Source: a virus (Duplodnaviria > Heunggongvirae > Uroviricota > Caudoviricetes). From it: a stretch of 37,383 nucleotides of DNA. Position numbers and translations under genes: made by a program. Below the pieces are notes generated by a model. It was not told the origin of the DNA, did not search any database, and was given only the letters and a program-made list of their open reading frames with translations. The stretch is from IMG/VR virus record IMGVR_UViG_2778261303_000009, one strand, 5' to 3'. This document shows, piece after piece, positions 1,054-37,096 of the stretch (the first letter of the stretch is position 1; every line of letters starts with the position of its first letter).

Positions 1054-1239
1054 AAAAAATACCCTCCAGTGGAGAGTATTTTTGCTGTATATATAACCAG
1101 TGTCAATGTATGAAATCTTGCGACCATACATCTCACTGAAGCCATAATGAAGTTGGCTATTTTTTGCTATGTGAGTATGTGACTTTTGCGGTTAGCCTGC
1201 GGCTCATTGTTATATTAGGCGCAGATATAAAAGCAAAAA

Positions 1240-1431
1240 TTATCGCGAGTTTTTAGTACAGATTTTTTTTGATTTACTAATAGTTCCATCATTGCAAACG
1301 AACTTTCCATCGGAGGTACAGTGAGAGACACCTCCCTTTTTCCCAGAACAAGGATAATTTTTAGCATAGGTAGTTAGTGGGTTTAATAACAAAGAGCATG
1401 ATAAAACCACAAAAAATACCTTACCAAGCAT
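1240..1431 (-). CDS. Small secreted lysine/cysteine-rich peptide (hypothetical; possible moron)
   Basis: 63-aa ORF in an AT-rich spacer between int and cI. N-terminal hydrophobic signal-like segment [23 protein letters not shown] followed by a K/C-rich 40-residue tail. No homolog recognised. Confidence 0.35.
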
Positions 1432-1446: not shown

Positions 1447-2022
1447 TTACCTAACGTACTTAATTGTTAAACTTATAATTTTTCCAATTATTTCAACATC
1501 TTCTATCTTGCACTCGAAGGCTCTGTTTCCACCTTCAACGAAGATTCTTCTACCGGGTAAACGAGTAATGTCGCGGATTGTTATTTCGCCATCAATACTT
1601 ATTACCCATTTACCATCACGTATATCATCAAATTCCTTATCACAAATAAATTCAGAATTATTATCTGTGATTACAAAAAGATTCTTGAATGCCGACGGTA
1701 GAAATTCTCTATCGAAAATATAAAAACCGTCTTCACACAAGGCCCCATCAGATAATACATATTTAGCAACTTCCATAGTATTTGTATTACCTGAAGTTTG
1801 CTTTGAACCATGCCCGGTTGTGAGCCAATTAAGCGAGGTGCCTGTTTCAAGGGCGCACTGGATTACCCATTCTGCTGGGAATGAGTCACGCATGTAGCGT
1901 GTGGCGAGTGTACTTTTAGAGATTCCTAAATGATCGCACAACGCCTGTCGAGTCTTGAATCCATAAGCTTCTACCATGCGCTCTATGGCGCCTCGTCCGC
2001 CTTTCTCCAAATTCATGGTCAC
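1447..2022 (-). CDS. cI: CI-type immunity repressor (phage 186 CI-like)
   Basis: 191-aa ORF divergent from the apl-cII operon and directly upstream of int. N-terminal HTH-like region (AYGFKTRQALCDHLGISKSTLATRYMRDSFPAEWVIQCALETGTSLNWL) resembles 186-type CI. RBS GGAG lies upstream of the ATG at 2022. Confidence 0.8.
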   Translation of the reverse strand: MTMNLEKGGRGAIERMVEAYGFKTRQALCDHLGISKSTLATRYMRDSFPAEWVIQCALETGTSLNWLTTGHGSKQTSGNTNTMEVAKYVLSDGALCEDGFYIFDREFLPSAFKNLFVITDNNSEFICDKEFDDIRDGKWVISIDGEITIRDITRLPGRRIFVEGGNRAFECKIEDVEIIGKIISLTIKYVR

Positions 2023-3719: not shown

Positions 3720-3946
3720 TGGCTGATGCAATGGATCTCGTACAGCAGCGAGTTGAAGAAGAACGCCAACGTCATATCCGTGCTGCCCGTGCCAAAACGC
3801 CGGGCGTGTCCCGCGTGCTTTGCGTTGAGTGTGAAGCGCCAATTCCGCCAGCACGCCGTCGTGCCATTCCGGGTGTGCAGCTTTGCATTACCTGTCAGGA
3901 AATCGCAGAGCTGAAAGGCAAACATTACAACGGAGGTGCTGTATGA
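3719..3946 (+). CDS. TraR/DksA-family C4 zinc-finger protein
   Basis: 75-aa ORF with CxxC-(17)-CxxC spacing (CVECEAPIPPARRRAIPGVQLCITCQ), typical of phage TraR/DksA-like zinc fingers. Translationally coupled to neighbours. Confidence 0.65.
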   Translation: MADAMDLVQQRVEEERQRHIRAARAKTPGVSRVLCVECEAPIPPARRRAIPGVQLCITCQEIAELKGKHYNGGAV

Positions 3947-4800
3947 GCACCATCCTGAAATGGGCGGGAAATAAAACCGCCATAATGTCCGAACTGAAAA
4001 AGCATCTTCCTGCTGGCCCGCGACTGGTTGAACCTTTCGCGGGTTCCTGTGCAGTGATGATGGAGACGGATTACCCCAGCTATCTTGTTGCGGATATTAA
4101 TCCTGATTTAATCAACCTCTATAAAAAGGTTGCTGCTGATTGTGAGGCGTTTATATCTCGTGCCAGAGCTTTATTTGAGGAAGCAAACAGGGAGGTGGCT
4201 TATTACAACATAAGGCAGGAGTTTAATTACTCCACTGAAATTACTGATTTCATGAAAGCGGTATATTTTCTGTATCTCAATCGTCATGGTTACCGTGGGT
4301 TATGTCGCTATAACAAGAGCGGGTATTTCAACATTCCCTACGGTAATTATAAAAATCCGTATTTCCCTGAAAAAGAAATTCGCGCATTTGCAGAGAAAGC
4401 CCAGCGGGCAACGTTTATCTGCGCCAGCTTTGATGAAACGCTGGCGATGTTGAAGGTGGGGGATGTGGTGTATTGCGATCCGCCTTATGACGGTACGTTT
4501 TCCGGCTATCACACTGATGGCTTCACTGAAGATGACCAGTATCACCTGGCATCCGTTCTTGAACATCGATCATCTGAAGGTCATCCGGTCATTGTTTCTA
4601 ACAGTGACACATCCCTGATTCGTTCGCTGTATCGCAATTTCACTCACCACTACATCAGGGCAAAACGCAGCATCGGCGTGTCGGCTGGCGAGAGTAAATC
4701 TGCAACAGAAATCATTGCTGTTTCCGGGGCGCGCTGCTGGGTGGGATTTGATTATTCGCGTGGCGTGGATAGTTCTGCCGTGTACGGAGTACGTGCATGA
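3943..4800 (+). CDS. dam: DNA adenine methyltransferase (Dam-like, D12-class N6-MTase)
   Basis: N-terminus [11 protein letters not shown] with FAGSCAV SAM-binding motif and catalytic DPPY motif (VYCDPPYDG). GGAGG RBS upstream; stop overlaps the A start (ATGA). Confidence 0.85.
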
Positions 4801-7208
4801 GCCATGCCGATATGAACAACTGCTGCGGCTTTAACGAGGCTGCCGCAGCGTTCTCATGGAACAGCCCGAAAAAGGCCATTAACCCTTATCTGGACCCGGC
4901 GGAAGTTGCGCCGGTTTCTGCGCTTTCAAACCTGATCACTCTGTACGCTGCCGATAACGAGCAGGAACAGTTGCGCCGCGAGGCACTGAGTGATCAGGTC
5001 TGGGAGCGTTATTTTTTTAATGAATCACGTGATCCTGTCCAGCACGAAATGGAGCAGGATAAGCTCATTAGCCGGGCAAAGCTGGCGCATGAGCAGCAGC
5101 GTTTTAATCCGGATATGGTCATTCTGGCGGACGTCAACGCCCAGCCTTCCCATATCAGCAAGCCGCTGATGCAACGTATTGAATACTTCAGCAGCCTGGG
5201 CAGGCCAAAGGCTTATTCCCGCTATTTACGTGAGACGATTAAGCCATGTCTGGAACGACTGGAGCATGTACGCGACAGCCAGCTATCTGCATCTTTTCGT
5301 TTTATGGCAAGCCATGTAGGGCTGGACGGCCTGCTGATTCTGCCTGAAATGAGTCAGGATCAGGTGAAACGCCTGTCTACCCTTGTCGCTGCGCATATGA
5401 GCATGTGCCTTGATGCAGCTTGTGGTGATTTGTATGCCACCGATGACGTTAAGCCAGAAGAAATCCGCAAGACATGGGAAAAGGTGGCAGCAGAAACCCT
5501 GCGACTGGATGTTATCCCGCCTGCGTTTGAGCAACTCCGCCGGAAAAGAAACCGCCGTAAACCCGTGCCCTATGAACTCATTCCGGGTTCGCTGGCGCGT
5601 ATGTTGTGCGCCGACTGGTGGTACCGGAAATTATGGAAGATGCGTTGCGAATGGCGGGAAGAGCAGTTGCGTGCTGTTTGCCTGGTCAGCAAAAAAGCAT
5701 CTCCCTATGTCAGCTATGAAGCCGTGATGCATAAACGTGAGCAGCGCCGTAAGTCGCTGGAGTTTTTTCGTTCTCATGAACTGGTGAACGAAGACGGCGA
5801 CACGCTGGACATGGAGGATGTGGTAAACGCCAGCAGCAGCAACCCTGCGCATCGCCGCAATGAGATGATGGCCTGTGTTAAAGGTCTGGAGCTTATCGCG
5901 GAAATGCGCGGTGACTGCGCCGTTTTCTACACCATCACCTGTCCGTCACGTTTCCATTCCACGCTAAATAACGGCAGGCCCAACCCGACCTGGACAAATG
6001 CGACAGTAAGACAAAGCAGTGATTATCTGGTCGGCATGTTTGCTGCATTTCGTAAGGCAATGCATAAAACCGGGCTGCGCTGGTATGGCGTGCGGGTGGC
6101 TGAGCCGCACCATGACGGTACTGTGCACTGGCATCTCATGTGTTTCATGCGCAAAAAAGACCGCCGCGCCATTACTGCATTGTTGCGTAAGTTTGCCATC
6201 CGTGAAGACCGCGAGGAGCTGGGCAATAACACGGGGCCACGCTTTAAGTCTGAGCTGATAAACCCGCGCAAAGGAACGCCGACAAGCTACATCGCGAAAT
6301 ACATCAGTAAGAACATTGACGGACGTGGTCTGGCTGGCGAGATCAGCAAGGAAACGGGTAAATCCCTGCGTGATAACGCCGAATACGTTAATGCCTGGGC
6401 GTCTCTGCATCGTGTTCAGCAGTTCCGCTTCTTTGGTATTCCGGGGCGTCAGGCTTACCGTGAACTTCGCTTGCTGGCTGGTCAGGCGGCAAGGCAACAG
6501 GGTGACAAAAAAGCAGGTGCGCCAGTACTGGATAACCCGCGCCTTGATGCCATTCTGGCTGCTGCTGATGCTGGCTGTTTTGCCACCTACATTATGAAGC
6601 AGGGCGGTGTACTGGTTCCCCGTAAATATCACCTCATCAGAACCGCTTATGAAATCAACGAAGAGCCGACCGCCTATGGCGATCACGGTATTCGTATTTA
6701 TGGCATCTGGTCACCCATTGCAGAGGGCAAGATCTGCACTCATGCGGTGAAGTGGAAAATGGTTCGTAAGGCCGTTGACGTTCAGGAGGCGGCAGCCGAC
6801 CAGGGCGCTTGCGCCCCTTGGACTCGTGGCAATAACTGTCCCCTTGCTGAAAATTTGAACCAACAGGAGAAAGATAAATCAGCTGATGGGGACACCAGAA
6901 CGGACATTACCCGCATGGATGACAAGGAGTTGCACGATTACCTGCACAGTATGAGCAAAAAAGAGCGCCGGGAACTGGCTGCAAGGTTACGTCAGGTGAA
7001 ACCGAAACGGCGTAAAGACTACAAACAGCGAATTACAGACCATCAGCGACAGCAGCTCGTCTATGAACTGAAGTCCAGGGGATTTGATGGCAGCGAGAAA
7101 GAAGTCGATTTGCTCCTTCGCGGTGGCAGTATTCCGTCAGGAGCAGGCCTGCGTATCTTCTATCGGAACCAGCGTTTGCAGGAAGATGATAAGTGGCGAA
7201 ACCTGTAG
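4797..7208 (+). CDS. A: Replication initiation endonuclease (P2 gpA / rolling-circle Rep family)
   Basis: 803-aa ORF with an HUH-like motif (TVHWHLMCF) and a double-tyrosine active-site motif ([10 protein letters not shown]) characteristic of P2 A-type replication proteins. Confidence 0.9.
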
Positions 7209-7303
7209 TGATTACGCTGGTTAACAATTTCTGCTCTTAATAATACCAGGCCTATCAGGCTGATGAACGTAAAAAAACGTTTTACATCAGTAAGATTATT
7301 ATA

Positions 7304-7323
7304 TACTGTAAATATAAACAGTG
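7304..7323 (+). promoter_or_regulatory. LexA (SOS) box TACTGTAAATATAAACAGTG
   Basis: Perfect CTGT-N8-ACAG palindrome with AT-rich centre, about 40 bp upstream of a strong RBS (AGGAGG 7355..7360) and the ATG at 7365. Confidence 0.6.
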
Positions 7324-7364
7324 GTTATGTATACAGTATTGCTTGTAGTGTCATAGGAGGAAAG

Positions 7365-7553
7365 ATGCAGGACTATTTTTTGGAGTCTTTGAAGCTCCAG
7401 CGCATTGATTTTTTTCTTAAGCTTGTAGCGGCCAGTGAGTGTAGTGATGAAGAGAAGAGACTGGCTATCCAGTGGGTTTCTGAGCTGACTGACGAGTTGA
7501 TGGCGAAAATTCGTAACTATGAATACAGCCGTACAATGGACGCTACCAGCTAG
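7365..7553 (+). CDS. SOS-regulated small protein (possible Tum-like antirepressor N-terminal part)
   Basis: 62-aa ORF, ATG at 7365 behind an AGGAGG RBS and the LexA box. Position after gene A corresponds to the LexA-controlled tum region of phage 186. Upstream in-frame extension to 7263 lacks an RBS. Confidence 0.5.
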   Translation: MQDYFLESLKLQRIDFFLKLVAASECSDEEKRLAIQWVSELTDELMAKIRNYEYSRTMDATS

Positions 7554-7563
7554 GGGAAAACCT

Positions 7564-7793
7564 ATGCGCATTGAAACAATGATCGATAAAGAGCAGTAAA
7601 TTAGCCAGGCGCTGTTAGAAGCCGTTGAATCCGAGCTTTACCGCAACCTGCAGCCTATCTATCCAAAGACAGCAATCCGCATTCGTAAAGGTTCGGCAAA
7701 CGGCGTTGAGCTGAGCGGCTTAAAACTTGATGAAGACAAAAGCGAGTGATGGAAATCATGCAGCATGTTTGGGAAGATGAGAGCTGGTTTTAA
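7564..7793 (+). pseudogene. DinI-family gene disrupted by an in-frame stop and a frameshift
   Basis: MRIETMIDKEQ then TAA at 7597..7599; the same frame continues ISQALLEAVESELYRNLQPIYPKTAIRIRKGSANGVELSGLKLDEDKSE to a stop at 7747. A shifted frame (7749..7793) encodes MEIMQHVWEDESWF, matching the DinI C-terminus (ETWESADDWF). Confidence 0.55.
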
Positions 7794-7816
7794 ATATCGA
7801 TTTAGGGGAAAATCTC

Positions 7817-7842
7817 AACCTCATGCAGTATCGCATGAGGTT
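7817..7842 (+). terminator. Hairpin (10-bp stem aacctcatgc / gcatgaggtt, 6-nt loop) downstream of the tum/dinI-like region
   Basis: Perfect inverted repeat followed by a weak T-rich stretch (cattt); marks the boundary before the AT-rich cargo region. Confidence 0.3.
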
Positions 7843-8010
7843 CATTTAGGCGAAATTTGTGGGAATTTTCTACAAGTTTATGAGCGAATAATTCATTTTT
7901 GATGTGTTAATTTCTTAACAATTTTGGCTTTAATTCTTGTAAAGCAAGACATAACGTTTATGATTGATAAATATAAAAAAATCTGAATAGGCAGGAAAGG
8001 AGTTTAACTC

Positions 8011-8526
8011 ATGCCTGGGTTAGAAAATGCACAGCAAAATCAAGTTGATGAAATCGTTCCAGCAATGCAAATCGCATTGGTCGAAGAAGATATAGAACAA
8101 CCCATCGCTGCCGAATACCTATACAGCCAGCATATAAGTGCGCTTGTGCCACAATGCCCTCCTGCCGAAGCGACAGAGTGCGATAGAGAATGCTGGCGTT
8201 TTACACTGAATCCTATAAGTCACAACTGCTTTTGGCCTCCAAAAAGAAGATCACCGCAGCGAATTGCTTCCGACGATGCGGAGGAGTGTTCTATGTGGGC
8301 GTTGTCTATGTATGAATCAGAGGCCCAGGCTACAAGAGCCTATACCATGTTAGCGAAGAAGATGAAAAATATCAGAAAAGCTATTGGTGATCACCTTGCT
8401 GTGGGTTCAGTAACCTGTAGTGATGGTAAATGTATGCCTGCTAGCAGAACCGGTCACTTTGATTTTCATCCTTATGTGGATGCGGATTTCGTTAACGGGT
8501 TCCAAGTAATACGAGCATTACCATGA
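8011..8526 (+). CDS. Cargo protein 1 (171 aa, no recognised domain)
   Basis: ATG at 8011 behind an AAGGAG RBS, after an AT-rich promoter-like spacer. First gene of a co-directional three-gene block; stop overlaps the next start (ATGA). Confidence 0.6.
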   Translation: MPGLENAQQNQVDEIVPAMQIALVEEDIEQPIAAEYLYSQHISALVPQCPPAEATECDRECWRFTLNPISHNCFWPPKRRSPQRIASDDAEECSMWALSMYESEAQATRAYTMLAKKMKNIRKAIGDHLAVGSVTCSDGKCMPASRTGHFDFHPYVDADFVNGFQVIRALP

Positions 8527-9614
8527 TAAAATTAGATGCTAGAAGAATAAATGCGTCAACTGTCGGAGATTATTCTTGGTACTCTGACCTCGTATATTTC
8601 GATGGTCCCCTAATTTGCTTGTTTAGAGGAAGCGGATATAAAGATGCTCTTTATGTCTGGCTCGATAATTCGGAGCGTGCCAATCGTTGGTGCTTGATTC
8701 CAGTATCAAGATCTACTTTGGACTCTTATCTTAACCAAAGAATGAGTTTAAGGGAGATTATACAATCGAGCGAATATACATATATCTGCGATCATTTTGC
8801 GGAAACAGGAAGGAAGCACTACAACATTTTGCACGTTGATAGTTTTCCTGAGGAGTATATGCCTGATGAAGATTCATATTTGTATGAAGAAATATGTACT
8901 GATGATGCATTGCTGTTGAAGCAGGAGCGCACCTCCAGTTATATGCTTGGATTAGATAATCAGTTGTTTATAAATGATTTATCTGTAATACCAAAAATTT
9001 TCGAACAGCTCTATTCTTTCCATTACGGATTGGCTCATTTAGGACGGTTGTCGATTAGAAATACCATGTTGCGTCTGATGGGGAATTGGACGGGTGGAAT
9101 ATCAGCAGTAAATATATTTTCAGGGTTGAAAAATGTTATTCCTGTTTTGCATCGACCAGAGATTAGCTCTCTCCAATACAATTCACCGGGGCATATTGAG
9201 TTAAATTTACTTCCTGATTTGGCTCAAAGTGTTCAAGATGCATCTATTCGTGTGAAAAGTGAGCTAGTTTATGACCGTCTGGAGAAAATGTATAAAAATA
9301 CATATGCATACTTCAAGGATAATGGGCTGTCAGGCTTTGATGAAGACGGCGGCATTGAAATTAGAAATATCGATAGTGATACCACCGAAAACCTACGTAA
9401 ACGCGTAAGAATATTTTTTAGATGTTTGGGGTGGTCAAGTTATCAAGCTCAGTTTGATCTGATCGGTGCCCATCCTCTACAACAATTACGTGCTGTGATG
9501 GCCTACTACAGGCGGCTCAAAATCTTGCGTGAATACATTGTCTCCGAGAAGCTTTTTGTTGGTCAGTCTCGGCTGTTACAGCAGCCACAAATTGCTCTGC
9601 CTCCTGAGGATTAG
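8523..9614 (+). CDS. Cargo protein 2 (363 aa, no recognised domain)
   Basis: Translationally coupled to protein 1. AT-rich codon usage unlike the flanking phage genes. Confidence 0.65.
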   Translation: MIKLDARRINASTVGDYSWYSDLVYFDGPLICLFRGSGYKDALYVWLDNSERANRWCLIPVSRSTLDSYLNQRMSLREIIQSSEYTYICDHFAETGRKHYNILHVDSFPEEYMPDEDSYLYEEICTDDALLLKQERTSSYMLGLDNQLFINDLSVIPKIFEQLYSFHYGLAHLGRLSIRNTMLRLMGNWTGGISAVNIFSGLKNVIPVLHRPEISSLQYNSPGHIELNLLPDLAQSVQDASIRVKSELVYDRLEKMYKNTYAYFKDNGLSGFDEDGGIEIRNIDSDTTENLRKRVRIFFRCLGWSSYQAQFDLIGAHPLQQLRAVMAYYRRLKILREYIVSEKLFVGQSRLLQQPQIALPPED

Positions 9615-9631
9615 ATTCTGCGTTATGCTGC

Positions 9632-10972
9632 ATGAATCCGCATGATCGTTTGAGGATCGTTCTAGATGAGGCCCGCCAGCAATGGCGGGCTTTTGCTAAT
9701 GTCATGCTGGCGCATGAAAACCGCTACATAAAGTGGGCAGGCGTGGCGGGGATACGATTGCGCGCTTATTCCAAAACGGCAATAATTAACTTTTCAAAAC
9801 ATCTACCAGGAAAGACAATGCTTATCTGCGAAGACCATATCGTCGAACCAAACGTAAAAAATCATGTTCGTCTGCAAACTGACAACAACATTTGTGTGTT
9901 TTGTAATGCTGTTACAAAATGCCTAGATACTGATTCGATAGAAGCTCGAAATTTGCTAAAAGCAATCTTACGTTATAACTTTGATGAAGTTCTCTATAAT
10001 ACACATATTGGTGGTGACTATTTCCCAGGTTTTTTATTAGCAGATGATTATATATTTTGCAGGGATATCCAAAGTTACGCTGAAGCATTTACTGATCTTG
10101 ATAGTGAAATATGGAGTATGGGGTTCACAACTGCAGGTGAGATTGATATACATTCAGGACATGATCAAGATGGCATGATGAATATGCCGCTTATGTCAAT
10201 TATTAACTCATATCATCCATTTATAGGAAAATTATCTAAGAAACTTGCTGAAGTAAATTACCATGAGTTTGAAGATGAATTGAGGGATATCATTAAAGAT
10301 TATGGGAATTCTTTTGCCAAAATAATTGAGGGTGGTTCTGTAGTTTATCGTGCTCGCGTAGGGACTGCTGGTTATAAAAAAGCTCATGAAGATTTTAACT
10401 ATGAAGGGAAGAAAATATTCGTTCCATACAAAAATAAAGAAATAGGTTCTGTTCCTCCTCTTAAAGCAACGGCAGGTAGAGCTAATAGAGTCGGGGTTTC
10501 ATACTTATATTGCGCGACTGATAGCTATACAGCGATCGCTGAGGTGAGACCTCATCCTACAGATGTAGTTTCTTTAGGTAAATTTAGCGTATCGCGAGCT
10601 TTAAAAGTATTCGATTTTTCATATCCAAACTTATTAGACTTTATCGAAAATGGCGATACTTTATTGAGAATGATTCCTTACGCTAAAATGGCGGGTATTT
10701 ATAATACCGCTACACCCCCCTCTTTGGAAGGAAGGTATAGTGTTTCGCAGCTCATATCTGACTGCATAAGAAAGGAAGGATACGATGGCATACAGTTTTC
10801 AAGCACTGTTGGTGAAGGGAAAAATTTAGTTGTGTTTAATCCTAGTTACATGGAATTTATTGAGGGGAGTTCAACGGTAATTGAAATTGACAAGGTACAA
10901 TATACATACAAAGAAAAACAAGTAGTAGGGATGAATGATCAGTGGGAGATTTATTATAATGAAGTTGAATAG
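9632..10972 (+). CDS. Cargo protein 3 (446 aa): N-terminal Cys/His-containing region plus C-terminal RES-like domain
   Basis: C-terminal half carries RES-domain-like motifs: VVYRARVG, then AGRANRVGVSYLYCATDSYTAIAEVRPH (GRxN...LYxA...AxxE), then GYDGIQFSSTVGEGKNLVVFNP (DGIxxxS...N.VVF). The start codon is uncertain because the RBS is weak. Confidence 0.65.
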   Translation: MNPHDRLRIVLDEARQQWRAFANVMLAHENRYIKWAGVAGIRLRAYSKTAIINFSKHLPGKTMLICEDHIVEPNVKNHVRLQTDNNICVFCNAVTKCLDTDSIEARNLLKAILRYNFDEVLYNTHIGGDYFPGFLLADDYIFCRDIQSYAEAFTDLDSEIWSMGFTTAGEIDIHSGHDQDGMMNMPLMSIINSYHPFIGKLSKKLAEVNYHEFEDELRDIIKDYGNSFAKIIEGGSVVYRARVGTAGYKKAHEDFNYEGKKIFVPYKNKEIGSVPPLKATAGRANRVGVSYLYCATDSYTAIAEVRPHPTDVVSLGKFSVSRALKVFDFSYPNLLDFIENGDTLLRMIPYAKMAGIYNTATPPSLEGRYSVSQLISDCIRKEGYDGIQFSSTVGEGKNLVVFNPSYMEFIEGSSTVIEIDKVQYTYKEKQVVGMNDQWEIYYNEVE

Positions 10973-19442: not shown

Positions 19443-21197
19443 TCAATCCCAAAATAAATTATTATTAATATTGCTCATATCGAAAGTGAAGTTCTTTTCT
19501 GTAATAGTTTCGTACCTTTGTTCATAGATTATTTTTACATATCTAAACCCCTGTGTTACAGAGCGAATTTTTCGGGGTTTTGATGCAAGCATAACAAGTA
19601 TTTCAAATACTTTATCAAGATAGTTGTGGGTGTGTTCAACTAAAAGGGGGGTAAATTTACCACCTTTTCCAGAATGGACTATGTTATTTCTTGTTCTATA
19701 AATTCTTCTGAGTTGCCATTCTAATCTTAACTTATGGTTATCTAAAGTTGATTTAATTGACTCCGGGGATGAAACTATGTTTTTTATATACTCGAAACGA
19801 TCTGAAAGCAATGTGTAATCACGAAATTTAGCGGATAAAGATTCCCTTACTGATTCGTATTCAGGAAGAATCATTATATTGGCTAGTTTGTGTTTCGCTT
19901 TTGCTCCAGGTATTCCTTTTAAATGTGAGTTTAGCATGTGCCTATTCCATAACAGCAGGTCTCGAGTAAGGTTGTCAATTAAGGAGTCTATATATGTAAT
20001 ATTCAGGAATGGAATTATACTTGCAGTAATATGTTCTATTGTTGCTTGATCCTTGGATTTAGTGTCTGTCGGCACTAATGATTCAAGAGCTATCCATAGA
20101 TTTAAAAGCTGATTTTCAACATTTTCACTTTTTAATGCCATTGAATGTAATTGAATACTTCTCAAGAACTTGGCAAATGAACTATTTTCTAGAGAAAACT
20201 CAGACATCAATGATTCAAGACGTTTCTTGGCCTTTTCATGCTTTAAGTCCTTGCATTTTTTCATGGGGTTAAGTCTTTCAGCCACTTTCAAAGAGTCTGT
20301 ATCAGTTATAACGAAAGCTTCATTTGACCAAGTAGGTTTATCTTTATGATGATAAATATTTAAAAAGGATGATGCTAATTTAAGTAGGTTTTCAGCATTC
20401 TCTCTTGCTGAATAAGAATCAAAAGCTTCTATATTTGATACGCAAACTATCTTCTTTCTTTGCAGATTTCTAAAAAAAACATGTTGGGAAAATTCTTCTG
20501 GTGGTTCTTTCTCAACAGACAAAGAGAGTCTTTCGAAAGTTGGCTCGGCGCCTAAAAACACTGGTTCAACAATAAAATATATTTTGTATTTCTTTTTTTC
20601 GAGTTTTATTAAATCAAAAAAAGAAGAGACATCAGTGTTATTTGAGATTTTATTATTCCCATAATAAAAAAATTGCTGGGTTAAATTCTTAAGATTATGT
20701 TGGCTAAAGCCAATGTAGAGTAATAAGCTGATATAATTTCTTGTTAGCTTGCGTATGATGCTTCTTTCCCAGTTTGGGGATGATAACTCTTGGGTGATAA
20801 GTTCTTCACTTTTTTCTTTATATAATTTGGGTGGTAATTGAATGACCAGCATTTCAATTATTGAGCTTCTCTCTTTAGGGCTTATGTTAGTATTTTTTAG
20901 TTTGTTGAGAAAAGCTTGGTAAGCATCGCCTAATAAATGTTGTGCTACTTTATCACATGACAAGTTATGTATTAATTCTGCGGTTAAATGTTCAATATTT
21001 TTAGGCTGAATAATACCATCCTCAACATCTTTAATTGTATTTAAAGTTTCTATTCCAATTGTTGGGGTATTCATCACTGAGGGTTTGTATGTGTCCAGTG
21101 TATAGTCAAATAGCATTTCATCCAGTAATTGCGCAAAATATACTAGTGCTTTACAAGTGTCTGGGCAATCCCATTTATACAAAGAACGAAATTTCAT
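19443..21197 (-). CDS. Cargo protein (584 aa) with C-terminal HEPN-type RNxxxH motif; candidate abortive-infection RNase
   Basis: Very AT-rich ORF antisense to the late operon, between S and V. Near the C-terminus, LEWQLRRIYRTRNNIVHSGKGG contains RNNIVH (R-N-x3-H), encoded at 19674..19691. Confidence 0.65.
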   Translation of the reverse strand: MKFRSLYKWDCPDTCKALVYFAQLLDEMLFDYTLDTYKPSVMNTPTIGIETLNTIKDVEDGIIQPKNIEHLTAELIHNLSCDKVAQHLLGDAYQAFLNKLKNTNISPKERSSIIEMLVIQLPPKLYKEKSEELITQELSSPNWERSIIRKLTRNYISLLLYIGFSQHNLKNLTQQFFYYGNNKISNNTDVSSFFDLIKLEKKKYKIYFIVEPVFLGAEPTFERLSLSVEKEPPEEFSQHVFFRNLQRKKIVCVSNIEAFDSYSARENAENLLKLASSFLNIYHHKDKPTWSNEAFVITDTDSLKVAERLNPMKKCKDLKHEKAKKRLESLMSEFSLENSSFAKFLRSIQLHSMALKSENVENQLLNLWIALESLVPTDTKSKDQATIEHITASIIPFLNITYIDSLIDNLTRDLLLWNRHMLNSHLKGIPGAKAKHKLANIMILPEYESVRESLSAKFRDYTLLSDRFEYIKNIVSSPESIKSTLDNHKLRLEWQLRRIYRTRNNIVHSGKGGKFTPLLVEHTHNYLDKVFEILVMLASKPRKIRSVTQGFRYVKIIYEQRYETITEKNFTFDMSNINNNLFWD

Positions 21198-34763: not shown

Positions 34764-36449
34764 TTATCCTAATCCTGGCCATACCATGACGATGATTGTC
34801 CCTGCCAGCGTCAGCAGGACGTTGGCGATTGCATAGGTGCCCGCATAGCCCAGCGCCGGGATGTTACTGCGAGCTGTATCACTGATGATCTCCATTGCCG
34901 GCGCGCAGGTACGTGCGCCCATCATTGCGCCGAACAACAGCGCGCGGTTCATTCGCAATACATAAGCACCGAACAAGAAACAGATAACCACGGGCACCAG
35001 ACTGACAATCAATCCGGCAATCAACATCTGACCGCCAATCGCGCCCAGGCCGTTATTAATACCGCTACCGGCGCTCAGACCAACGCCTGCCATAAACACC
35101 ATCAAGCCGAACTCTTTCACCATGCTTAATGCACCCTGCGGAATGTAACCGAAGGTCGGGTGGTTAGCACGCATAAAGCCCAGCATAATTCCGGCGAATA
35201 ACAACCCGGCAGCGTTCCCCATGCCGAAACTGAATGTGCTGAACTGGAAGGTGATCATCCCGATCATCAGCCCAATAACAAAGAAGGCGCAAAATGCCAG
35301 CAGGTCAGTGACCTGGCTGTGAATCGAGATAAAGCCGATGCGATCGGCGATGGTTTTTACGCGACGGGCATCACCGCTGACTTGTAAAACGTCACCTTTG
35401 TTAAGCACGACGTTGTCATCTATCGGCATCTCAATCTGGCTACGAATGACGCGGTTAAGGAAGCAACCGTGATCGGTCAACTTCAGTTGTGCGAGACGTT
35501 TACCTACAGCGTTATGGTTTTTAACGACCACTTCTTCAGTGACGATACGCATGTCGAGAAGGTCACGATCGAAAACTTCTTTACCGTTACGGAAGCTGGG
35601 ATCGAGTCGGGCATGGGCGTCGGGATAGCCTACCAACGCTATTTCATCGCCCATTTGTAGCACGGCATCACCGTCTGGATTTGCCAGAATCCCGTTACGT
35701 CGAATACGTTCAATGTAGCAGCCGGTTTGTCGATAAATACCCAGTTCACGCAGATTTTTGCCGTCGGTCCAGGCCACCAGCTCCGGGCCGACGCGATAGG
35801 CGCGGATCACCGGTAAATAAACCTTACGGTTGGCATCAGTGTCCAGGCCACGTTCGCGGGCGATTTGCTGGGCGCTGGTCTGTAAGTCCTGATGCTGCAA
35901 TTTCGGCAAGTAACGCGCACCAACAATCAAACTCACCAGACCGATTAAATAGGTTAAGGCATACCCGAGGCTCAGATTATCCAGTGCCAGTGAGAGCTGC
36001 CTGCTTTCCATGCCGGAATGACGCAGTGTATCGCCAGCACCGACCAGAACCGGTGTCGACGTCATAGAGCCTGCTAACATACCGGCCGTCAGGCCAATAT
36101 CCCAGCCAAACAGCTTACCTAACCCTAAGGCGATCACCAGCGCACTGCCAACCATCACCAGTGCTAACATTAGGTAATTTTTCCCATCGCGAAAAAAAAT
36201 GGAAAAAAAGTTCGGTCCGGCTTCAACCCCAACACAGAAAATAAACAGCATAAAGCCAAGATTAAGCGCATCGGTGTTAATGCTGAAATGTTGTTGGCCT
36301 AATAACAGCGATACGACTAAAACGCCAATGGAATTACCCAGTTGGATCGAACCAAGTCGTAACTTTCCGAGACATAGCCCAAGCGCGAGGACCACAAATA
36401 ATAACAGAATGTAATTCCCATTTAACAATTCGGCGACGTTTATATTCAC
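34764..36449 (-). CDS. ybjL: Putative transport protein YbjL (AAE-type transporter with two RCK_C/TrkA-C domains)
   Basis: 561-aa membrane protein, N-terminus [42 protein letters not shown] matches E. coli YbjL as recalled. Synteny with ybjM and grxA. Confidence 0.85.
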
Positions 36450-36718
36450 GGAGGCTAACTTCTTGTTTACTAGTAAGCTGTTGAAAGAAATGGTAATTTA
36501 CGATAATGTTTTTTACCAGAATTCAGGGCGCAGATTCATTCAGCGCACCTAAACGATAGTAAAGTAACAATATATTTTACTAGTGTAATCACATTAGGTA
36601 TCAACGGCTATATGAATTGCGTTGGCCTATATTAGCATGGAATGCGAAGCGGCTTTATCTTACTGAACGCCACACTGGCGAAAAATGTGTTCGATAGACG
36701 CAGTGTCAGGAGGAACGA

Positions 36719-37096
36719 GTGAAACATAAACAACGTTGGGCGGGGGCAATCTGCTGTTTTGTCCTCTTCATTGTGGTGTGCCTTTTTCTGGCGACGCACA
36801 TGAAAGGCGCTTTTCGGGCTGCCGGGCATCCTGAAATCGGCTTGCTATTTTTCATTCTTCCTGGAGCAGTCGCCAGCTTCTTTTCACAGCGTAGAGAAGT
36901 CCTGAAACCTCTGTTTGGCGCAATGCTGGCGGCACCCTGTTCGATGCTCATTATGCGGCTGTTTTTTTCACCGACGCGCTCATTCTGGCAAGAGCTGGCA
37001 TGGTTATTAAGTGCGGTGTTCTGGTGTGCGCTGGGGGCACTGTGTTTCTTATTTATCAGTAGTTTGTTTAAACCACAGCACAGAAAAAATCAGTAA
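36719..37096 (+). CDS. ybjM: Inner membrane protein YbjM
   Basis: 125-aa hydrophobic ORF with a GTG start behind an AGGAGG RBS, between ybjL and grxA as in E. coli. Confidence 0.75.
   Translation: MKHKQRWAGAICCFVLFIVVCLFLATHMKGAFRAAGHPEIGLLFFILPGAVASFFSQRREVLKPLFGAMLAAPCSMLIMRLFFSPTRSFWQELAWLLSAVFWCALGALCFLFISSLFKPQHRKNQ

Follow-up and report, generated by a model that had tools for sequence, protein, structure and literature searches.

A probable SOS-induction module of the Fels-2/DuoHS type, with a LexA-silenced 62-aa antirepressor gene, in a P2-like prophage

The window, i.e., the whole stretch of 37,383 nucleotides analysed here, is a P2/186-like prophage. Directly after its replication gene A lies what is very probably the SOS-induction module of a P2-like prophage of the Fels-2/DuoHS type, in which a LexA-silenced gene encodes a 62-aa antirepressor that would inactivate the CI repressor. 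The mechanism itself is already known: it is that of the split-Tum, LexA-controlled antirepressors, a close member of which has been tested experimentally. A sequence-only reading had proposed that a LexA-repressed, Tum-like module follows gene A as in phage 186, and this is upheld by position, by the layout of the p95-tum promoter, by homology, and by the type of CI, which all agree. Beyond this earlier account, the DinI-like half of the module was found to be dead, the operator to be double and of the colicin type, and a candidate LexA-gated promoter to lie upstream of int. The features of the module are as follows.

7281..7286, (+): putative -35 hexamer TTTACA, 17 nt 5' of TACTGT, in the layout of 186 p95
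7304..7309, (+): putative -10 hexamer TACTGT, assigned from its counterpart in 186 p95; bases 1-6 of LexA box 1
7304..7323, (+): LexA box 1, TACTGTAAATATAAACAGTG, with the core CTGT-N8-ACAG at 7306-7321
7319..7338, (+): LexA box 2, CAGTGGTTATGTATACAGTA, overlapping box 1, with its core at 7321-7336
7355..7360, (+): ribosome-binding site (RBS) AGGAGG, read from the sequence
7365..7553, (+): tumA-like antirepressor gene of 62 aa, ATG at 7365 and TAG at 7551-7553, assigned by profile homology
7564..7793, (+): DinI-like gene (tumB equivalent), a pseudogene, from alignment with intact 77-aa genes and tblastn
7817..7842, (+): 10-bp hairpin after the operon, a weak terminator candidate, from RNA folding

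The succession of a LexA box, the AGGAGG motif, and the 62-aa ORF that had been read from the letters was confirmed at these coordinates.

The proposed switch and its known relatives

The prophage surrounding the module is arranged as follows.

1-1131, (-): int, with its ATG at 1053
1447-2022, (-): cI, 186-type repressor from its Pfam domains, the presumed target of the antirepressor
2142-2363: apl-like gene, by position in comparison with the 186 and Fels-2 records
2390-2905: cII
3883-4800: dam-like methylase gene, from annotated relatives
4797-7208: replication gene A, from annotated relatives
11017-34219: long ORFs of the expected late region, known here as ORFs alone
34764-37096: host ybjL-like gene and ybjM, flanking the prophage

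DuoHS, the related prophage of E. coli HS, adjoins rcdA in the same host region as ybjL and ybjM. The antirepressor region is matched by 1104 of 5426 complete E. coli genomes, and the downstream cargo genes of the window differ from those of DuoHS, Fels-2, and PSP3.

In the lysogen, LexA bound to the two overlapping SOS boxes (7304-7338) would shut the promoter that follows gene A, the boxes covering its predicted -10 and start region. DNA damage activates RecA, and LexA then cleaves itself. With LexA lost, the tumA-like promoter would fire, and its first product would be a two-helix protein of 62 aa, the counterpart of PSP3 TumA and of the Tum N-terminal half in 186. By analogy with the biochemistry of 186 Tum and with the deletion of DuoHS tum, this protein would bind CI and stop it from binding its operators, upon which the lytic promoter would open. 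The DinI-like half appears to be an optional part of the operon: it is dead here, and so it would not be needed for the switch.

Phage 186 is one of the closest known systems. Its p95-tum module also stands right after gene A, its -10 hexamer TACTGT is likewise made of the first bases of the LexA box, so that the LexA site begins at the same -10 base, and its CI is of the same type. The 186 promoter p95 is annotated as TTCACA, 18 nt, and TACTGT, compared with TTTACA, 17 nt, and TACTGT in the window. The Tum protein of 186 has been reported to bind CI and to block its DNA binding (Shearwin 1998, as cited in PMC3121763). The two systems differ in that 186 Tum is a fusion of 146 aa, made of an antirepressor half and a DinI-like half, whereas the window has separate genes with the DinI half a pseudogene. 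They also differ in the operator, since 186 and PSP3 each have one LexA box and the window has two overlapping ones.

The split form is common to DuoHS, Fels-2 (STM2728 and STM2726.1), and PSP3, in each of which a DinI-like gene of 77 aa comes after one of about 60 aa. In DuoHS, tum is a 62-aa gene placed between gene A and the DinI-like gene, as in the window; the supplement of PMC12055606 gives its locus tag as ECHS_RS04495. For Fels-2 and PSP3, Lemire et al. state that a stop codon splits the gene in two (PMC3121763); as summarised in the same source, the split tum of Fels-2 was originally described by Bunny, Liu and Roth in 2002. The antirepressor activity of PSP3 has been assigned to the upstream gene (PMC3121763), and in the PSP3 record the two genes are entered as tumA ("UV induction of prophage") and tumB. 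DuoHS, Fels-2, and PSP3 retain an intact DinI-like gene, which is dead in the window, and PSP3 TumA is only remotely similar to the window protein.

The closest experimental support comes from DuoHS in E. coli HS, in which deletion of tum or a lexA(Ind-) allele abolishes induction and lysis by mitomycin C (PMC12055606). The idea, put forward from the sequence alone, that this prophage uses the same strategy as 186 thus gains support from a relative whose Tum is 87% identical and which requires both tum and a cleavable LexA. Small LexA-controlled antirepressors acting against a non-cleavable repressor are also found in GfoA and GftA of the Gifsy prophages and in AntC of N15 (PMC3121763). The Gifsy operons carry a dinI homologue as well, but placed first (PMC3121763). 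Neither these proteins nor their repressors are of the 186 type.

The CI of the window matched the Pfam domains Phage_CI_repr (2.8e-33) and Phage_CI_C (3.1e-26), and no Pfam match to the peptidase S24 self-cleavage domain was obtained for it. This is the architecture of 186 CI, in agreement with the similarity suggested earlier; the repressor is of the 186 type and presumably escapes cleavage in the SOS response. Its identity is 98% to DuoHS CI, 42% to Fels-2 CI, and 32-33% to 186 CI. In the comparison with Fels-2 CI, about 70% of residues 6-72 are identical and about a quarter of those in the C-terminal domain. TumA is nearly identical between Fels-2 and DuoHS. As a conserved TumA is paired with repressors that are alike mainly in the N-terminal DNA-binding domain, TumA may target this domain, a suggestion made with low confidence.

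The 62-aa protein and its decayed DinI-like neighbour

Gene A ends at 7208 and the small ORF starts at 7365, the same gene order being found in 186, PSP3, Fels-2, Cartapus, and DuoHS. The protein is 85% identical to Fels-2 STM2728 and 87% identical to both ECHS_RS04495 and Cartapus gp44, and eight of its 62 residues, most of them in the C-terminal tail, are different in DuoHS Tum. An exhaustive HMMER search returned 67 representatives, almost all of 55-75 aa, and 27 of them were aligned for a family profile. When this profile was compared with 186 Tum by hhalign, residues 3-52 aligned in register with a probability of 94.9% and an E value of 4.5e-8, at an identity of only about 18% over the region. 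A weak match in register was obtained with PSP3 TumA (E 0.004, probability 8.6%). The ORF and residues 1-61 of 186 Tum match the same PHROG families in the same register: the ORF matches PHROG 698 (2e-35), 8554 (9e-8), and 1993 (4e-3), and 186 Tum matches 1993 (1e-22), 8554 (1e-11), and 698 (2e-5). The description of the small ORF as Tum-like is therefore justified, in the sense of homology to the N-terminal half of Tum. Direct alignment to 186 Tum, which had been put forward along with that description, failed by BLAST and succeeded only at profile level; BLASTP gave no alignment of the ORF with either 186 Tum or PSP3 TumA.

The similarity to 186 Tum is confined to its N-terminal half, which points to the split tumA form. 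The DinI-like domain does not lie in the 62-aa frame, which stops at 7553, and it has a separate ATG at 7564; the gene therefore has the split form of PSP3 and Fels-2, not the fused form of 186. Some gene callers report a 96-aa ORF starting at 7263. It was rejected as an over-extension, its start being 5' of the promoter and the distant homologues beginning at the start of the 62-aa ORF.

The ORF is a real gene under strong purifying selection. Against 37 homologues, the median dN/dS was 0.05, or 0.04 when only codons 1-50 were counted. Of the 36 species loci, 35 have kept an unbroken tumA-like ORF. In the AlphaFold2 model, the protein folds as a hairpin of two helices, at 2-23 and 28-61 (pLDDT 88.5), and Cys26, at the predicted turn, is near-invariant in the alignment of 27 members. 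Database searches for known domains and structures were negative. Pfam gave only a sub-threshold chance match to PPP1R21_C (16.8 bits against a cut-off of 27.3), NCBIfam gave no match for the ORF, and a profile search of PDB sequences gave nothing for the family. A Foldseek search of the predicted hairpin against the PDB gave only generic two-helix matches, with nothing at E<1, and is uninformative because a two-helix fold is too simple.

The DinI-like gene carries a TAA at codon 12 (7597-7599), where Cartapus and DuoHS have AAG, and a 1-nt deletion after 7738, and no unbroken frame of some 77-81 aa is left in the window copy. In Cartapus, where the homologue is intact, it matches the Pfam family DinI, PF06183, at 2e-24. 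Thirteen complete E. coli genomes match positions 7150-7900 at an identity of at least 98%, and both of those inspected, E. coli 13C1079T and 200088, have the same lesions; PGAP labels the gene "frameshifted" in 13C1079T and "frameshifted; internal stop" in 200088. As they recur in these genomes, the lesions are not sequencing errors. Of the 36 species loci, 16 carry an intact DinI half, 4 a disrupted one, and 16 none. Such frequent loss, next to a tumA ORF that is intact in nearly every locus, implies that the DinI half is dispensable for the role for which tumA has been selected, and the antirepressor function does not need it. In the 186 record, shorter Tum products consisting of the DinI part only are annotated as modulators of SOS induction.

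In the lineage with the dead DinI gene, the decay of the operon has begun, and the inducibility of the window prophage is therefore not to be assumed. The module could be a relic, its features real and inherited in a prophage that is no longer SOS-inducible, whether because the TumA tail has changed, because of a lesion elsewhere, or because DinI was lost. This would be consistent with the two inactivating lesions, which are common to a small clade of E. coli prophages, with the eight substitutions relative to the tested DuoHS protein, and with the behaviour of some 186-like prophages, e.g., BTP5, that transcribe tum without phage release (PMC7067206). It is nevertheless considered unlikely: the ORF is intact, and identical copies of it are recorded on many contigs, both boxes, the RBS, and the -35 hexamer are as in inducible relatives, the expected late region (11017-34219) is tiled with long ORFs, and many relatives dispense with the DinI half.

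A further explanation is that the operon is a LexA-controlled "moron" unit with the DinI-like modulator as its payload, the 62-aa ORF being unrelated to Tum or a leader, and induction proceeding by another route. The DinI family comprises classic SOS genes, and in the relatives the neighbouring gene is a clear DinI homologue; the ORF, moreover, belongs to no Pfam or NCBIfam family and has no BLAST similarity to Tum. Yet the supposed payload is dead here and has been broken or lost in 20 of 36 species; the ORF and its LexA box persist, under strong purifying selection, and profile comparison ties the ORF to the N-terminal half of Tum. The DuoHS deletion took out exactly the 62-aa gene and abolished induction, and the upstream half has been reported as the antirepressor in PSP3 (PMC3121763). 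A DinI payload unit is for these reasons very unlikely, and the 62-aa antirepressor remains the preferred reading of the operon.

The 62-aa family is named "hypothetical protein" wherever it is named in the genomes and phage records examined. Naming it is justified by the profile link to Tum together with the DuoHS experiment. By analogy with DuoHS, this small gene would decide the response of very common prophages to DNA-damaging antibiotics.

The antirepressor promoter and its double operator

The evidence from the sequence for LexA repression of the tumA-like promoter is strong, resting on the score of the site, its p95 layout, and its conservation. The first LexA box had been described as perfect. 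This applies to its CTGT-N8-ACAG core and does not extend to the full 20-mer, which agrees with the full LexA consensus at 17 of 20 positions. The bare motif occurs once in the window against 0.41 expected, and at least once in 35 of 100 shuffled sequences; its count alone is not significant, whereas the full 20-mer is. The bare count was replaced by a full-site matrix and comparative evidence. A set of 25 E. coli SOS boxes, compiled without recourse to a database, was used for the matrix. Box 1 scores 24.1 bits, the top of the window, and would rank 4th among the 25 training sites. It stands above the best sites of all 200 shuffled windows, which reach a maximum of 19.1 bits with a mean of 11.3, so that matrix scoring of the site, suggested in the earlier reading, came out in its favour. 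Box 2, whose 16-nt core shares G7321 with that of box 1, scores 15.9 bits, which exceeds both the 12.9 of the weakest training site and the mean shuffle best. Only 7304-7323, 1083-1102 (23.7 bits), and 7319-7338 stand out in the window, the next best site having 8.1 bits.

Support that does not depend on the matrix comes from the 186 p95 layout, from the alignment with colicin and pesticin promoters, and from conservation in 35 of 36 species. Box 1 is identical in DuoHS, Fels-2, Cartapus, and E. coli 13C1079T, and the differences in box 2 among these four are confined to the central N8. The contact bases of both boxes in the double operators of DuoHS and Fels-2 are identical to those of the window. 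The -35 hexamer TTTACA is invariant across DuoHS, Fels-2, and Cartapus, as is the AGGAGG RBS among the relatives. In 35 of 36 species loci, the homologous ORF is preceded by a LexA site scoring 14 bits or more, at a distance from the gene that is kept throughout, with fixed contact bases and variable spacer bases. A second box at an offset of +15 was found in 22 of the 36 loci, and another 11, mostly from Pantoea, Erwinia, and Tatumella, have a single box. That the LexA-like sequence arose by chance as an AT-rich palindrome and regulates nothing, as the expectation of 0.41 minimal motifs per window and the AT-rich region might suggest, is effectively refuted by this conservation; the full-site score above all shuffles also speaks against it, as does the finding that 45 kb of E. 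coli HS DNA holds only the double site and the int site at 12 bits or more.

The -10 hexamer could alternatively be TATACT at 7302-7307, with a 15-nt spacer; with either hexamer, LexA would cover the -10 region of the antirepressor promoter. This promoter was not called in a generic promoter scan of 7100-8100, because TACTGT is a weak -10 sequence. All that the same scan reported was a promoter-like site (7937-7964) and, within the ORF, a hairpin on the minus strand, both regarded as chance. After the operon, the fold of 7800-7860 has an energy of -17.3 kcal/mol (z -3.3) and a poor U-run (CAUUUA); the hairpin is placed like the partial terminator t95a annotated in the 186 record.

Double operators of the same kind are present in colicin plasmids. 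When a query of 85 nt from this region was compared with plasmids, matches to many small plasmids fell precisely on the double box. Three of these records were inspected, and in them the matching stretch immediately precedes the genes for colicin R, colicin N, and pesticin. The operators of these genes are like that of the window in having two boxes at an offset of 15 bp with one core base in common, and about 40 bp can be aligned column for column between the window and the three promoters. They drive toxin genes, whereas the double operator of the window drives a phage regulatory gene. From the alignment, the boxes of the colicin promoters appear to be 3' of the -10 hexamer, while box 1 of the window starts at it. 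Common descent with the colicin operators is not claimed, as the shared bases are largely constrained by LexA. For colicin operators, simultaneous binding of two LexA dimers and a lack of detectable basal expression have been reported (PMC2994835). As in the colicin genes, the double operator of the window probably confers tight repression with little basal expression, and a strong SOS signal would then be needed for induction. This suggests a tighter induction threshold than in 186.

A LexA-boxed element upstream of int

The second high-scoring LexA site of the window belongs to a promoter-like element directly 5' of int, which is possibly part of the same SOS wiring. Its parts are the following.

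1055..1106, (-): the whole LexA-boxed promoter-like element
1106-1101, (-): TTGACA
1100-1085, (-): CTGG-N8-ACAG, held in a 17-nt spacer, with the scored 20-mer at 1083-1102
1083-1078, (-): AAAAAT
1083-1055, (-): hairpin, -15.2 kcal/mol, z -4.6

The RBS of int lies in the 3' arm of the hairpin, and the U-run directly adjoins the start codon of int at 1053. Transcription entering from cI would plausibly terminate at this hairpin, with the int RBS buried in the stem. An SOS transcript starting near 1071, inside the hairpin, would lack the 5' arm and could hence be translated. It can be proposed, tentatively and with rather less than even confidence, that induction of the Fels-2/DuoHS type is wired to LexA twice, once through the double operator and a minimal 62-aa antirepressor that would hold the whole function, with a disposable DinI half, and, in the DuoHS/Elveevirus subgroup that includes the window, a second time through a LexA-repressed int promoter set in a terminator hairpin. 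If so, excision would be gated by DNA damage directly and not only through CI, the int promoter providing a second, CI-independent SOS input.

The element is absent in 186, PSP3, and Fels-2, and a literature search found no description of a LexA-controlled int promoter in P2-like phages. It is conserved in DuoHS and in three P2-like phages of Klebsiella and E. coli. In these relatives the LexA contact bases are fixed while the spacer bases vary, and the hairpin persists despite changes in the sequence of its stem, also next to a different upstream gene.

The tumA-like gene and its presumed target

The 62-aa tumA-like ORF (7365-7553, plus strand), which would encode the antirepressor TumA, belongs to a family for which Pfam and NCBIfam hold no model. 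The family is named "hypothetical protein" in every examined record whose source gives a name, and the function entry of PHROG 698 is "unknown". In public annotation, the gene is frequently called as 80-106 aa, with 96 aa for the window sequence (7263-7553). In these longer calls, the start has been extended 5' across the operator and promoter.

The Fels-2 and DuoHS-type versions of TumA are nearly identical. The 186-type repressor CI of the window (1447-2022) and that of Fels-2 (L004, 31891-32520) share sequence mainly in the N-terminal DNA-binding domain, where identity reaches about 70%, versus about 25% in the C-terminal domain (counted by hand from the alignment). The near-identity of TumA, together with a CI similarity confined mainly to this domain, therefore hints that TumA might target the N-terminal domain of CI. 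The sequences also hint that antirepressors could cross-act between prophages resident in the same host.

Possible control elements near gene A and int

Two elements with possible regulatory roles lie close to gene A and int:

7259-7291, conserved hairpin in the interval from gene A to the tum promoter, overlapping the promoter's -35 hexamer
1055-1106, minus strand, promoter-like element with a LexA box, immediately 5' of int

The hairpin has a free energy of -12.6 kcal/mol and a z of -3.35 (fold of 7240-7300), and it is without a clear U-run. It may serve in termination or attenuation of early transcripts leaving gene A.

The LexA box near int is a strong 20-mer (1083-1102, 23.7 bits) flanked by a perfect TTGACA and a -10-like AAAAAT. 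A terminator-like hairpin comes after it, and the int RBS is buried within this hairpin. The element is kept in the E. coli HS prophage DuoHS and in three P2-like phages of Klebsiella and E. coli; none was found in 186, PSP3, or Fels-2. It may act as an int promoter under SOS control.

Cargo genes

Directly after the SOS operon, the window carries cargo genes at a position occupied in 186 by orf97:

7817-7842, hairpin, weak terminator
7937-7964, promoter-like site
8011-10972, cargo genes
9632-10972, cargo gene for a RES-domain protein of 446 aa

The cargo includes the two-gene anti-phage system PD-T4-10 (A, 9.8e-76; B, 1.3e-172). Because the hairpin is a weak terminator, transcripts from the predicted LexA-controlled promoter may read through it. 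Instead of the RES-domain gene, the closest E. coli relative carries a gene of the AIPR family. In the Erwinia and Pantoea loci L038 and L039, the next ORF lies about 46 nt past the tumA-like stop and begins MNSHDPKRISDAQA..WRAF, resembling the N-terminus of the RES-domain protein (MNPHDRLRIVLDEARQQWRAF); this cargo gene may therefore recur directly after tumA in distant hosts.

A further ORF, on the opposite strand, stands amid the late-gene ORFs:

19443-21197, minus strand, 584-aa ORF

It matches the defence protein ApeA weakly (1.2e-12) and probably belongs to the cargo of a second variable site.

The cI-int interval and the host flank

1240-1431, minus strand, 63-aa ORF between cI and int
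34764-37096, host genes for a ybjL-like permease and ybjM, right end of the window

The 63-aa ORF has no match in Pfam. DuoHS carries an equal-sized gene in the same position; the small gene at this place in PSP3 is a different one, and 186 and Fels-2 have none. By eye, its N-terminus is hydrophobic and signal-peptide-like.

The permease has Asp-Al_Ex and TrkA_C domains, and these right-end genes are consistent with the DuoHS host region in E. coli HS, adjoining rcdA.
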